A program made the position numbers and the translations under genes. Below, piece after piece: positions 5,246 to 54,978 of a DNA stretch of 64,000 bases. Under the pieces are notes generated by a model. It made no database searches. It was not told where the DNA came from and saw nothing but the letters and a program-made list of their open reading frames with translations. The DNA comes from Eledone cirrhosa (Eukaryota): NCBI GenBank assembly GCA_964016885.1, contig OZ024742.1:336784001-336848000 (forward strand), read 5' to 3'. The number at the start of each line of letters is the position of its first letter. The stretch's first letter is position 1.

Positions 5246-5298
5246 GAGATTCTACAGGACTAGAACTGTTTCATTCATTTGAAATCATCAGGAATCTC
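5246..5298 (-). ncRNA. Type I hammerhead ribozyme (family B)
   Basis: Minus strand: GAGATTC-CTGATGA-TTTC AAAT GAAT-GAA-ACAG TTCTAGTC CTGT-A-GAATCTC. 7-bp stem I, GUA triplet. A 5'-truncated mirror copy starts at 5297 on +; another copy lies at 52575-52624. Confidence 0.8.
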
Positions 5299-5454
5299 CT
5301 GATGATTTCAAATGAATGAAACAGTTCTAGTCCTGTAGAATCTCATCTATATTAAAACTGTTATACTCTGCTATGTATTGAGTACCTTACTTACTGTGGT
5401 TACCTCCGATTCAACCCGGAATAACGTATATATATATATATATATATATATATA

Positions 5455-6265
5455 TTAGAAAGTGGGGTTTTTTTTTAGGGGGGGGGGGGGTTACAAAATG
5501 AAAAATAACCGAGGTGTCCTACACGAGTGAAAGTATAAAGAAATAGAGATGAAATCGAAAATGCAACTGGAGTCTTATTTTTTTTTTTAAATATATATAT
5601 TTATTTGGTTCCTTTACTGGTTTCGCAGTTCTTCTGCTTTTCAAAAGGTGAGTTGAGATGGAGGGTCTGTGGTTTTTCACATCTGGTTGGTCTCTGAATG
5701 TTACTTGTTTTATATGGAAAAAGTGGCTCGAAGTGCCAGGTTTTTCGAGAAGTAATTTGATTGGTTTGTCAATAATTATAATAAATTTCGCACCAGTTCG
5801 CGTTACAATAGTTCTTCAAATAAGAGGGGGGGTTGTCACATGTTGTTTTTTCATATATGAGTGTTTGAATTTCTTTTTACTTGAAAAAAGGAGGCTCACG
5901 AAGGCTTTTTTTTGGTTGGTTATAAATGAAATTATGGCTGTCACGTGAACAAATTTTCATTAAATTTTTGTGCCCTTATTTGGAAATCCATTCTGTAGCC
6001 TTTTTAGAGAATTTTTTGATAAGTGAAATATAATTGTTTCTACTTTAGGCACAAGGCCAGCAAATTACCCAGTACATTACTGGTACTTTATTTTATCGAC
6101 CCCGTAAGGATGAAAGGCAAAGTTAACCTCGGCGGGATTTGAACTCAGACTGTAAAGGGAAGTGAAATATAATGGTCAAGAGAAAGGGATGGGAGAATTG
6201 TTCTGGTTCAGTGAATATGGTTAGTTCGCTGGGGTGTCAGAATTCAGAATTCAGATTTTTTTCTA
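5455..6265. repeat. Inverted copy of the 3722-4556 repeat family
   Basis: Reverse complement of ~3970-4556, interrupted by a SINE. Confidence 0.75.
6035..6159 (-). mobile_element. 5'-truncated SINE (family 1) with 14-bp TSD
   Basis: AAGTGAAATATAAT at 6021-6034 and 6160-6173; empty site in the paralogue near 4053-4066. Confidence 0.85.
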
Positions 6266-6593
6266 TATATATATATATATATATATATGTATATAGGGAA
6301 AAAACTCCCGACCCCGACGGCAGAGCTCAAGCCGTTTCACAGCTTGACCTCTGCCGTCGGGGTCCTGACTCTTTTTCTATTACTCACTCTACTACACGAA
6401 ATATCGAGTACTCAGGTGCGTTATGACCTACCTGGTTCCTTACCACACTTCCTTCGTTATATATATATATATATATATATATAATATATATATATATATA
6501 TATATATATATATATATATATATACACACACACACATATATATATATATATATATATATATATATATATATATATATATATATATATATATAT

Positions 6594-6838
6594 GAAGGAC
6601 GTAAAATAAGAACATTTTAAAAAAAGATTTAAAAAATTAACTTACTATTTTCACTCCTGAAAATTTTAGTAAGTTAATTTTTCTAAATCTTTTTTTTAAA
6701 TTTTCTTATTTTACGTCCTTCATATTATTGTTCTGCATCCTCCTGCGTTGAACCACCTAGGTACTATGACATAACTTATGTATTTGCTAGCATTAGCGTA
6801 CATCTGTACGCATATGTTAGTAGATATACTAAATTCTA
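6594..6838. repeat. Inverted-pair fragment related to the 522-bp hammerhead unit at 54379-54978
   Basis: 6594-6647 is the reverse complement of 6666-6723; 6666-6838 aligns with ~54410-54570. Confidence 0.65.
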
Positions 6839-7129
6839 TATATATATATATATATATATATATATATATATATATATATATATATATATATATATACACA
6901 TACATACATACATGCATGCATGCATACATACATACACACACACACACACATATATATATATATATATATATATATATATATATATATATATATATATATA
7001 TATATATATATTATATATATATATATATATATATATATATATATATATATATATATATATATATATATATATATATATATATATATATAACAGGAGGCTG
7101 GACTGGTGTAAATCCTTGAAAGGTTTATT

Positions 7130-7187
7130 ATACTATGATCATTTTAATGACCGGGTTCCATATGAATCCGGTGATATCATCAGGTAT
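7130..7187 (-). ncRNA. Degenerate hammerhead ribozyme in the PLE 3' pseudo-LTR (family J)
   Basis: Minus: ATAC-CTGATGA-..ACCGG..CCGGT..-AAAA (G of GAAA lost)-TGATCA-TA-GTAT followed by AATAAA. Confidence 0.5.
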
Positions 7188-52382: not shown

Positions 52383-52492
52383 TATATATATATATATATA
52401 CATATATATACATATACATATATATGCATATATATATATATATATATACATATATATGTATATATATATATGTATATATATATATATATATA

Positions 52493-52624
52493 CGTTATTC
52501 CGGGTTGAATCGGAGGTAACCACAGTAAGTAAGGTACTCAATACATAGCAGAGTATAACAGTTTTAATATAGATGAGATTCTACAGGACTAGAACTGTTT
52601 CATTCATTAGAAATCATCAGGAAT
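52493..52624 (-). ncRNA. Family B hammerhead fragment with 3' flank
   Basis: Reverse complement of 5297-5425; stem I truncated to 4 bp. Confidence 0.7.
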
Positions 52625-53893
52625 ATATATATATATATATATGTATATATATATATATATATATACATATATATATATATATATATATATATACATATAT
52701 ATGTATATATATATATGTATATATATATATATATATATATATATATATATATGTATATATATATATATGTATATATATATATATATATATATATATATAT
52801 GTATATATATATATATACATATGTATATATATATATATATATATATACATATATATGTATATATATATATATATATACATATGTATATATATATATGTAT
52901 ATATATTAGAAAGAGAGTTTTTTTTTACAAAATGACAAATAACCGAGGTGTCCTACACGAGTGAAAGTATAAAGAAAAAGAGATGAAATCGAAAATGCAA
53001 CTGGAGTCTTATTTTTTAAAAAAATATATATATTTATTTGGTTCCTTTTGCAGGTCTGACAACACGTGTGTAGCCAGGCCAAACTAGCCGTCTCGCATTT
53101 ACGGTGCTAGAAATAACAGCTATTTATGCGGGATTAAAGATCAGCTCTACAATAAAGGAGCAATATACTATATTATATTTTGAGAATAAACTTTTCAATT
53201 CACATACCACCGTTGCGAAACGGATTTAGGTTTCGAGGTTCAAATTCGTCTACGGAACAGATTTGGATTTTGAAATTTAAATCTGTCCAGGAATCATATA
53301 AGCTTGTCTTTATTGACTTATATCAAGACAGACAACTTTAATTAGTTTATTTCATTAATAGCTAACTTTGTCTGTTGCAATGTAAACACGTTTCGTGTTT
53401 ATCATATATTTTAATGTATTTAACTGCTCGGAAAAGCCCCTTTTCCTGGAGCTTAATTATTGTAAACGACTGAGAGTTTATTCTCAAAATATAATATAGT
53501 ATATTATATATATATATACATATATATATATATACATATATATATACATATATATACATATATATATATATACATATATATGTATATATATGTATATATA
53601 TATATACATATATATATACATATATACATATATATACATATATACATATATATACATATATACATATATGTATATATATATAATGTCTTTATTGACTATA
53701 TATATATATATATACATATATATATATACATATATACATATACATACATATATACATACATATATATACATATATACATACATATATATACATATACATA
53801 TATACATATATATATATACATATATATATATATATATATATATATACATATATATATATATATATATATATATATATATATGTATATATATAT

Positions 53894-54248
53894 ATCATCA
53901 TCATCATTTCATTTTACGTCCACTTTTCCCTGCTTGCAAGGGTGGGACGGGAACTGATTCTGGCTTGATTTCTACAGCTGGATGCCCTTCCTAACACCAA
54001 CCTCATTTACAGTGAGTGCTGGGTGCTTTTTTGCCGTGGCACCTCCACGAGTGATGCTTTTTTGCCGTGGCACCTCCACGAGTGATAGGGATCCCAGTCC
54101 CTATAATCTCATTTCTACAGCTGAGTAAACTGGAGCAACGTGAAATAAAGTGTCTTGCTCAAGGAAACAACACATCACCCGGTCTGAGAATTGAACTCAC
54201 AACCTTTCGATTGCAAAGCCAATGCTCTAACCACTAAGCCATGTGCCT
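53894..54248 (-). mobile_element. Full-length tRNA-derived SINE (family 2)
   Basis: Reverse complement of 47030-47374 with a ~31-bp internal duplication. Confidence 0.88.
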
Positions 54249-54378
54249 ATATATATATATATATATATATATATATATATATATATATATATAATATATA
54301 TATATATATATATATATATATATATATATATATATATATATATATATATATATATATATATATATATATATATATATA

Positions 54379-54978
54379 CCAGAAACTAATTAGTTGGAAG
54401 TGATATTTTAGTAAGTAAGTTAATTTTATAATTTTCTTATCTTACGTCTCTTATATTATTGTTCTGCAACCCCATGCATTGAACCACACTGTTATTAAGA
54501 CAAAACCTATATATTTGCTAGCATCGATATGCATTTGTATGTATATATATGTTACTAGATATAAATTCTTTATTATTATCTCCAAAATATTTGTCGAGCA
54601 ATACTGGCCATGACTGCTGCTACGGTAGTAGGCTGGCCGCTGTCTTATTAACAACCCACTTTCCACCGATTGACCTCGACGTCACGTGTTCGATTCTTTT
54701 TGAATTTGCCACGGATACAGAGGCAGTGATTTTCTCAATGGCTAGGAGGTAAGTCCACGCTTTGCTATTTCCTATTCACTGATTTATTTTTTAATAAGCT
54801 ACCAGTGTCCTCGCTTTGCCTGGAAACTTATATGAGAATTGACTTTCCTGATGACGGGATGTTTCTCTACACCTTCTTCGGAAGATGTATCTACTCCATT
54901 CCAGAAACTAATTAGTTGGAAGTGATATTTTAGTAAGTAAGTTAATTTTATAATTTTCTTATCTTACGTCTCTTATAT
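54379..54978 (+). mobile_element. 522-bp unit with ~77-bp terminal redundancy containing a hammerhead (retrozyme/pLTR-like)
   Basis: 54379-54456 = 54901-54978; flanked by (TA)n. Confidence 0.75.
54842..54923 (+). ncRNA. Hammerhead ribozyme with 49-nt stem II capped by C(UUCG)G (family E)
   Basis: ACTTTC-CTGATGA-C GGGATG..CTTC TTCG GAAG..CATTCC A-GAA-ACTAATTAGT-T-GGAAGT. Confidence 0.78.

Follow-up and report, generated by a model that had tools for sequence, protein, structure and literature searches.

Hammerhead ribozymes (hereafter hammerheads) in Penelope-like elements (PLEs), the targeting of TA repeats by Hydra-type PLEs and retrozymes derived from PLEs have all been published (PMC4209133, PMC7229834, PMC8557442 and bioRxiv 10.64898/2026.07.22.740005; these and the other sources below are cited for the sections considered here). 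Cervera 2014 (PMC4209133) described minimal hammerheads in the pseudo-long terminal repeats (pLTRs) of PLEs, with numerous families in each genome and pairs on opposite strands, put forward a circle model, and noted that minimal and long-stem variants escape strict descriptors. Non-LTR retrozymes were defined by Cervera and de la Pena 2020 (PMC7229834), who reported circles in coral, mussel and axolotl and named PLEs as candidate helpers, a status repeated in PMC7761336. Li 2026 (bioRxiv 10.64898/2026.07.22.740005) presented retrozymes as non-autonomous PLEs on the basis of co-occurrence and pLTR similarity. Inversion with a 30–40-nt tail is specific to PLEs, and the tail covers the distance from one reverse transcriptase (RT) start site to a second (PMC8557442, PMC11167929), and the Hydra-clade motifs (RWK-like/DKT, CxCX5C, CxxC and CxH) are defined in section 11 of PMC8557442. 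What PLE hammerheads do, and which helper animal retrozymes use, are questions under debate, on which the proposals of 2014–2026 rest on co-occurrence and similarity. Here, we analysed a 64-kb stretch of the 3.0-Gb Eledone cirrhosa assembly (C3, positions 336784001–336848000, the whole of which we call the window), in which hammerheads of 14 families lie in PLEs and in non-coding tandem units, and we conclude that PLE enzymes probably mobilise both.

The window is 65 % AT, and (TA)5 or longer runs account for 9.8 % of its bases, compared with 4.1 % in sampled stretches. It was searched with a descriptor for type I hammerheads (three stems, I–III, around the core C[UC]GANGA...GAAA...UH, with the first stem II pair allowed open) and with a looser one that also accepted a U3-A8 core and an extra nucleotide; a strict descriptor overlooked motifs with an open first stem II pair. 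The type I descriptor returned 24 matches, 12 in a 310-bp array and 12 in eight other families, compared with a mean of 0.03 (maximum 2) in 100 block-wise dinucleotide shuffles. The looser descriptor returned 25 (0.24 in shuffles). Listed sites outside both descriptors (7183, 26975, 28333, 28873 and 33617) were read by hand against their relatives. CTGANGA sites at 4775, 20586, 26819 and elsewhere lack stem I or III and were ruled out as hammerheads. Rfam returned no hammerhead in the window at gathering thresholds, and none was found among the 150 of 652 matches considered from its E-value list, which were mostly microRNA models on TA repeats. For annotation, 14 families are invisible to Rfam at gathering score, and the 310-bp arrays would pass as satellite DNA.

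The 14 families (F1–F14) comprise seven from PLE pLTRs (five Hydra-type, two Neptune-type), five from non-coding tandem units, and F6 and F9, for which no partner was found. A first-pass annotation, made from the letters of the window, had proposed about eleven; the diversity is real, but 10986 (+) and 28566 (+) had been overlooked, as had a decayed F14 copy at 5644 (−) and a second F1 copy at 52620 (−). Each of its 12 listed sites or groups does carry a type I motif or, from a family with such a motif, a decayed copy, and its expectation of a density above that of shuffled sequence held. Cores are canonical in F1, F4, F5, F7, F10, F11, F12 and F13, of U3-A8 type in F8 and F14, changed from U4 to C in F3 and F6, and broken in the window copies of F2 (7183) and F9 (33617). 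Three stems around the core, open at stem I, are required by the descriptor and were recognised by hand in F2, F6 and F8, stem I of F9 being doubtful; stem III is palindromic in nine of 11 families checked. As the first-pass annotation had remarked, nearly all sites are bounded by (TA)n and several lie just upstream of AATAAA: (TA)4 occurs within 160 nt 3′ of the cut in 17/19 non-array copies, the remaining two being upstream copies of partial tandems, and AATAAA lies about 15 nt or less from the cut in 6/14 families.

Four PLE pieces (A–D) are present in the window. Hydra-type PLE A (7360–10720, −) comprises a 5′ pLTR, an interrupted RT–GIY-YIG frame (9968–7498) and the first 141 nt of its 3′ untranslated region (UTR). 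Hammerhead F3 (10209–10255, −; U4→C core 10251, cut after 10213) lies in the 5′ pLTR, and 27/29 other PLE A copies continue into the sequence upstream of the window frame, 14 of them reaching F3 within the flank. The first-pass annotation had attached the hammerhead at 7130 (F2, 7183) to this element; the segment is present in 0/29 other PLE A copies, which reach F3 instead, so F3 is the PLE A ribozyme, F2 is a foreign piece, and 7130 was ruled out in that role. Its links of 28785 and 41298 to PLE 3′ ends stood. The former is F8 (28785–28878; U3-A8 core 28873, cut after 28790) in the 5′-truncated Hydra-type PLE C (28772–30583, −); F8 lies 3′ of the PLE C endonuclease in other copies, and 11/12 fetched loci show the motif with the U3-A8 core TTGATAA. 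The latter is F10 (core 41360) in the PLE D insertion (41262–42785, −), with a 1-kb UTR. PLE D is known only from a 56-residue endonuclease fragment at 43 % (42537–42370), and F10 lies 3′ of this endonuclease both here and in a second locus (L071). The inverted arm of PLE D, within the same coordinates, carries the tail and F10 at 42532 (+). F10 recurs in a short inverted pair (45750–46056; cores 45938 − and 45963 +) with the tail on one arm; at 43267–43345, its stem II region and an inverted copy form a hairpin inside a long TA tract.

Several sites that the first-pass annotation had left without coding sequence (5246, 10209, 12847 and 47891) are likewise PLE pLTR ribozymes. F5 (12847–12884, +; core 12850, cut after 12881) lies on the inverted arm (12833–12932) of a Hydra-type PLE B fragment (11350–12932, left end approximate, −) that retains the C-terminal part of the endonuclease (12832–12467) and the 3′ UTR; elsewhere, F5 is found on both sides of PLE B frames (loci L225 and L229, F5–ORF–F5). 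F1 (5246–5298, −; core 5291, predicted cut after 5253) sits in a short inverted pair (5232–5427), has U-U at the stem II base and a 4-bp stem III with an 8-nt loop, and flanks on both sides a 758-codon Hydra-type frame, PLE-E (L251). The second F1 copy in the window (52464–52624, −; core 52620, cut after 52582) has a truncated stem I and a long tail.

RWR and DKT motifs precede the RT in PLE A, PLE-E and intact PLE-C, the N-terminal part of PLE B lying outside the alignment. All four have a CxCX5C linker, a C-terminal GIY-YIG without CCHH, and CxxC and CxH motifs; the Pfam GIY-YIG match is weak (E value 7e-4). Like Hydra-clade elements, these PLEs have (TA)n targets and a hammerhead in the pLTR. 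Their units, at 3.5 kb (C), 4.7 kb (B) and about 6 kb (E), exceed the clade's general length of under 3 kb because their UTRs are long; this length is usual in the Hydra clade, not diagnostic. Intact PLE-C occurs in arrays (C1:437192001–437216000 and C1:91471001–91497000; L268–L273), each made up of four complete units of 3.53 kb in which a 784-codon frame is open; these arrays likewise have an inverted arm and the same pair of ends, and their units differ at 0–1 and 2–8 positions, respectively. This young element is a candidate helper for F12, although no sequence connects the two. An A-B-A-B alternation of its units was ruled out as evidence for dimer circles, because at C1:91.47 Mb the incomplete fifth unit is of type A. 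At another locus (L067, 5350–6090 and 6380–7140), F8 and F3 ends are joined head to head, and a further Hydra-type PLE carries a U3-A8 hammerhead of its own, ~250 nt ahead of the frame.

The F11 pLTR fragment (47854–48095, +; hammerhead 47891–47929, core 47896, cut after 47924) belongs to a Neptune-type PLE, as F11 flanks both sides of a 4.2-kb element (L244, C1:63258300–63265000; L245, C1:64256500–64263000; F11–ORFs–F11) that encodes GxKF, DKG, a CX4CxxC linker and GIY-YIG at the C terminus, with RVT_1 and GIY-YIG matches above cut-off. In both copies, an upstream 476-codon frame, for which no Pfam match above cut-off was returned, shares a T TTT TTA heptamer with the RT frame where the two overlap (L244, reverse complement 3090–3200; L245), an arrangement that suggests a programmed −1 frameshift. 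F14 (28563–28598, +; U3-A8 core 28566, cut after 28595) is likely the pLTR ribozyme of a second Neptune-type PLE, with an endonuclease 1.0–1.4 kb upstream on the same strand in two loci (L062 and L020); the partner was assigned by tblastn only (41–51 % similarity) and may be Nematis rather than Neptune. The decayed F14 copy (5612–5650, ends approximate, −; U3-A8 core 5644) has a broken stem III palindrome.

Five tandem families are non-coding. Their units measure 310 bp (F12), 420–442 bp (F4), ~520 bp (F13), 839 bp (F7) and ~1,960 bp (F2), and each contains a type I hammerhead; no PLE match was found inside any of them. The GC content of the first four is 0.34–0.40. F4 (10719–11303, +) is a retrozyme in a 442-bp partial tandem (hammerhead 10980–11022, core 10986, cut after 11016), and its genomic tandems have units of 420–430 bp. 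F13 (54379–54977, +) and F7 (27238–28465, −) are also partial tandems, the former with a hammerhead at 54842–54923 (core 54848, cut after 54917) and the latter with two that have an 84-nt stem II each, one at 27494 and cut after 27392, the other at 28333 and cut after 28231 (one stem III mismatch). F2 is represented by a 3′ fragment of its ~1.96-kb unit (7090–7359, −) fused to the truncated PLE A. Its hammerhead (7130–7187, −) reads core, long stem II, GAA, palindromic ATGATCAT, cut and GTAT; the first-pass annotation was right to call it degenerate, as G12 is changed to A at 7145 and the window copy is predicted to be dead. G12 is kept in most of 100 listed relatives (of 4,025). Folded as a circle, the 310-bp unit reaches −68 kcal/mol, compared with −47 ± 5, and the retrozyme-type units show strong self-pairing in circular form (z −4 to −10).

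F6 (26970–27059, +; cut after 27054) shares the U4→C core (26975) with the hammerhead at 10251 and has a stem II base of two pairs under a long stem II (61-nt region), within an inverted-arm element (26322–27100). The stretch at 27055–27179, in which the F6 3′ end faces its own inverted copy tail to tail, is a near-perfect inverted repeat with a TA loop, as is 3168–3251. F9 (33617–33650, +) is a decayed minimal-type hammerhead with an extra A before stem II and a U16.1→C change, and its relatives also have a weak stem I.

The insertions share a signature at their 3′ ends. The distance from cut to TA has two modes in F1 (~21/90), F5 (53/153), F6 (52/137), F11 (56/120) and F2 (55/199), and two-mode ends are also found in F8; F4 has one main mode at 127. 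The signature is clearest in the F12 insertion (48567–52383), in which 12 identical hammerheads are distributed over two head-to-head arms with TA on both sides. The minus arm (48567–49882) holds 4.2 units and ends in the unit's TA tract, and the plus arm (49914–52383) holds eight units and ends ~39 nt beyond the minus-arm end point, the junction being 49883–49913. We mapped the arm ends in the window and at eight loci chosen by ribozyme sequence (a ninth, L130, is a lone fragment): one lies at unit position ~130 in 9/9 and the other at 165–169 in 8/9, the exception (L123) lying outside TA, with its end at 154. Genome-wide, there are 1,010 exact junctions of position 165 to TA; F12 insertions thus number at least 1,010. 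The surrounding (TA)n masks any target-site duplication, which in non-LTR retrozymes is longer than 4 bp when present. Among 20 loci taken from the first 100 of the 1,010 listed, 17 have an inverted arm, two extend beyond the fetched stretch and one is single-armed; 16/17 inverted arms end at the unit's TA tract, and one runs off the stretch. F12 therefore shows the inverted, 5′-truncated arm and the 30–40-nt tail at one end that mark PLE-made insertions, and neither poly(A) nor an RTE-type repeat tail was present at the F12 ends read. As these marks are PLE-specific, a PLE enzyme likely copies F12.

The units themselves carry a second line of evidence. We compared 213 F12 units of exactly 310 nt. 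The mean number of differences per 310 nt was 0.21 for units of one arm, 0.16 from arm to arm and 3.40 from locus to locus; among 25 loci with at least two full units, 14 haplotypes are fixed in every unit, nine of them at one locus only, and full units are present on both arms at 19/25 loci. A locus-own haplotype fixed across both arms is what rolling-circle copying of one circle predicts. Unfixed variants are mostly confined to a single unit (25/30), and one insertion, of about 20 + 12 units, has one unit-specific difference in 27 full units scored. Fixed changes in the ribozyme affect N7, position 10.1, loop 2 and, with pairing preserved, stem I, and never CUGA-GA, albeit over few events; GAAA belonged to the anchor by which the units were picked.

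Genome-wide background was estimated from 60 stretches of 10 kb, placed at regular steps on C1–C12 (0.02 % of the genome, not strictly random). These 600 kb contain 39 matches (65 per Mb), compared with four altogether in ten shuffled sets. Extrapolation gives roughly 2 × 10^5 motifs in the genome, a figure that is only rough because matches cluster (42/60 stretches are without any). Downstream, (TA)5 lies within 200 nt of 34/39 sampled hammerheads, compared with 13.5 % of random positions; upstream, of only 7/39. A[AT]TAAA lies within 10 nt of 12/39 (1.9 % of random positions), and hammerhead counts correlate with TA clusters (Spearman 0.58). The proposal of the first-pass annotation that TA microsatellites host PLEs and non-autonomous hammerhead elements, with its predicted (TA)n enrichment, is upheld by these figures and by the five non-coding families. 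The window has 13 non-array matches, and bootstrapping gives an average of 5.8 for 64 kb (P=0.07); it is thus fairly typical for the genome and holds few more motifs than would be expected from its TA content. Pattern searches of the genome, for which the reversed-pattern controls were all 0, returned 31,459 copies of F1 (≤1 mismatch in 29 nt), 18,765 of F4, 8,173 of F11, 4,025 of F2 (≤2 mismatches), 3,250 of F5, 2,528 exact copies of F12, 2,059 of F6 and 26 of F9 (≤2 mismatches). PLE coding sequence is found in 16/60 sampled stretches (3.6 % of bases), and a first look returned ~62,000 candidate endonucleases genome-wide, a count that takes in other PLEs too.

In this genome, then, the motifs lie 20–200 nt before a TA-joined 3′ end, in company with PLE frames, inverted arms and, in each family, a pair of fixed ends. 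From these features, it is probable that PLE enzymes mobilise hammerhead RNAs, including those of the non-coding units, via RNA circles into (TA)n. Tandem transcripts would self-cleave, the palindromic stem III presumably working best as a dimer between neighbouring units, and the cleaved monomers would be ligated into circles. A Hydra- or Neptune-type GIY-YIG endonuclease may then nick both strands of (TA)n; reverse transcription from each nick, starting at one of two fixed RNA sites, would yield two head-to-head arms, one of them tailed. On a circle, the enzyme would run round repeatedly until a random stop and leave arms of several units that share one haplotype; with long PLE RNAs as templates, the usual early stop would leave short hammerhead-bearing 3′ pieces such as those filling the window. 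Later insertions would target the TA runs left by older ones, and families would come to cluster. For the 310-bp arrays, we lean slightly towards reading each as the record of a single event, in which a PLE RT would have made up to 20 rounds on one circle, with both (TA)n nicks used.

Several points weigh against circle-mediated mobilisation by PLEs. Many motifs have an open 10.1–11.1 pair, a U4→C core or a 3–4-bp stem I, and the predicted minimum-energy structure of most isolated motifs is not a hammerhead, which is to be expected for dimer-type motifs yet lends no support either. In vitro, 8/9 Xenopus retrozyme dimers remained uncleaved (Li 2026, bioRxiv 10.64898/2026.07.22.740005), and insertion by an Anolis PLE did not need its ribozyme (PMC11167929). 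The clade names given to the PLEs are motif-based and not taken from a tree. No coding partner in register was found for F6 in 12 loci of 3 kb and five longer ones, nor for F9 in 12 loci. When the non-coding units were compared with 11 PLE stretches, simple repeats were all that they had in common at the nucleotide level; their descent from the compared pLTRs was not found, and the continuum by descent from pLTR to free retrozyme that the first-pass annotation had envisaged was not shown. What links the non-coding units to PLEs is a common insertion signature, not sequence homology. Finally, five unfixed F12 variants are common to 2–7 units, and the order of units is A-A-B-A-B in one PLE-C array and A-B-A′-B in an F4 array; these orders indicate duplication in place, and some arrays probably also expand in that way.

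The last of these points would be accommodated if PLEs made two-armed insertions from linear read-through RNA that then grew in place by unequal crossing-over or slippage, with the ribozymes as passengers. The A-A-B-A-B order of PLE-C does not suit a dimer circle, F4 is similarly ordered, local amplification has been proposed by Li 2026 (bioRxiv 10.64898/2026.07.22.740005), and ribozyme mutants still insert in vitro (PMC11167929). F12 itself has variants shared among units: one in units five apart (L177), one in all six units of one arm and the first unit of the other (L180, 7/11 units), and a block of three variants, a switch to another haplotype, that occupies two end units (L186). Growth in place is nevertheless unlikely as the general explanation, since the singleton variants form a star-like pattern (25/30), both arms are multi-unit in 19/25 loci with between-arm likeness equal to within-arm likeness, the ~20 + 12-unit insertion has a single unit-specific difference in its 27 scored units, and the F12 ends stay constant while unit number varies.

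That the non-coding units spread by another long interspersed nuclear element (LINE), by DNA rolling circle or by satellite recombination, and have only TA-rich regions in common with PLEs, would fit their want of nucleotide homology to the compared pLTRs and the abundance of RTE- and L1-like reverse transcriptases in the window. We consider it very improbable: the head-to-head arms, the ends ~35 nt apart and the flanking (TA)n match insertions of PLE-C and other PLEs, the published PLE-specific tail is matched, and poly(A) or RTE-type repeat tails are absent from the F12 ends read. It is barely credible that the motifs arose from chance matching, or from faulty assembly, in repetitive DNA rich in AT. 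Rfam returned none of them, perfect tandem identity could be made by assembly, and two window copies are broken; however, the excess over shuffles (24 compared with 0.03) refutes chance on motif statistics, the families have thousands of dispersed copies with reversed-pattern controls of 0, and the arrays have locus-specific and unit-specific variants. A separate contig set, which may be from the same sample, contains the 310-bp unit and its head-to-tail joint. In one sequencing run (X1), a non-repeat stretch was covered evenly at low depth, like DNA. Sharing of the 310-bp unit across species (runs X4–X6, which bear other organism labels) was not counted, as there was one low-depth contig and almost none of a second stretch.

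If the single-circle reading of the 310-bp arrays is true, they would provide sequence-level evidence for the long-proposed circle model of PLE/retrozyme spread, and intact Hydra PLE-C and F12 would form a ready enzyme–template pair in the same genome. The PLE-specific tail and inverted arm are found on non-coding arrays at about a thousand loci, and the haplotypes point to a single-monomer template. The F12 ends predict exactly where reverse transcription should start, and both hypotheses, that of a PLE helper and that of a circle, become directly testable.

The remainder of the window contains other repeats and a likely host exon. Two LINE copies (55009–58598 and 59126–62718, +), 91.7 % identical and presumably RTE-like, encode an AP endonuclease, an RT and a PHD-like finger. 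An interrupted LINE with RVT_1 and zf-RVT (13281–15451, −) we take to be L1/Tx1-like, and a helicase fragment with a weak Pfam match (34104–34454, −; E value 0.077) is presumably Helitron/PIF1-like. A run of chitin-binding peritrophin-A (CBM_14) domains that recur every 195 bp (20900–21900, −) is likely a host gene exon, and minisatellites lie at 21923–23172 (148 bp, with 21-bp subunits) and 30934–32863 (22 bp).

Compared with known systems, the Hydra-type PLEs described here resemble the Hydra clade (PMC8557442) in their C-terminal GIY-YIG, RWR and DKT, CxCX5C linker and CxxC and CxH motifs, as well as in the pLTR hammerhead, (TA)n targets, partial tandems, inverted arms and tail. They differ in unit length (3.5–6 kb with long 3′ UTRs, compared with generally under 3 kb), in tail length (~65–100 nt, compared with 30–40) and in forming at least five, very abundant families. 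The F11 partner is like Neptune-type PLEs in its GxKF, DKG and CX4CxxC linker, its GIY-YIG with CCHH-like residues and its pLTR hammerhead, and unlike them in the upstream 476-codon frame overlapping the RT frame; frameshifted ORF1s have been noted in some PLE types (PMC8557442, Fig. 1 legend). Non-autonomous Chlamys elements such as MRC1 (PMC8557442) are also PLE derivatives with multicopy head-to-tail insertions, but their 3′ ends resemble those of autonomous partners, and they are mostly without hammerheads.

The hammerheads are reminiscent of the minimal type of PLEs (PMC4209133), with palindromic stem III, an extra nucleotide before stem II (F9), U3-A8 covariation (F8 and F14), opposite-strand pairs, many families per genome and a circle model for head-to-tail copies. 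In contrast, stem II regions here reach 97 nt, the 10.1–11.1 pair is frequently open, and the U4→C core is family-wide in F3 and F6. The estimated ~2 × 10^5 motifs compare with 10^3–10^4 in PMC4209133 and ~120,000 in axolotl (PMC7229834), whose HHR_Amex2 shares with F1 the U-U at the stem II base. Metazoan non-LTR retrozymes (PMC7229834, Li 2026) are likewise non-coding tandems of ~300–450 bp with a GC content of 34–40 %, one type I hammerhead per unit and strongly self-paired circles, with PLEs proposed as helpers. The arrays here are unlike them in being two-armed, with two fixed ends, and set in (TA)n; unit size extends to 0.84 and 1.96 kb, compared with 150–450 bp and up to 972 bp (Li 2026), and homology to the compared pLTRs is absent here, whereas it was found for 24/57 Xenopus retrozyme families against Repbase (Li 2026). 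In the sections considered, neither paper contains the two-arm, tail or haplotype evidence. The considered sections of an octopus repeat annotation (PMC13282606) do not contain the word hammerhead, and a literature search covering titles and abstract openings, with subscription papers and supplements largely outside it, returned no report of retrozyme arrays with two arms and a tail, nor of haplotypes fixed by locus. The elements of this genome thus belong mostly to known kinds, namely Hydra- and Neptune-type PLEs as well as non-LTR retrozymes, and the two-arm and tail signature together with the locus-fixed haplotypes at the 310-bp arrays is possibly the part that is new.

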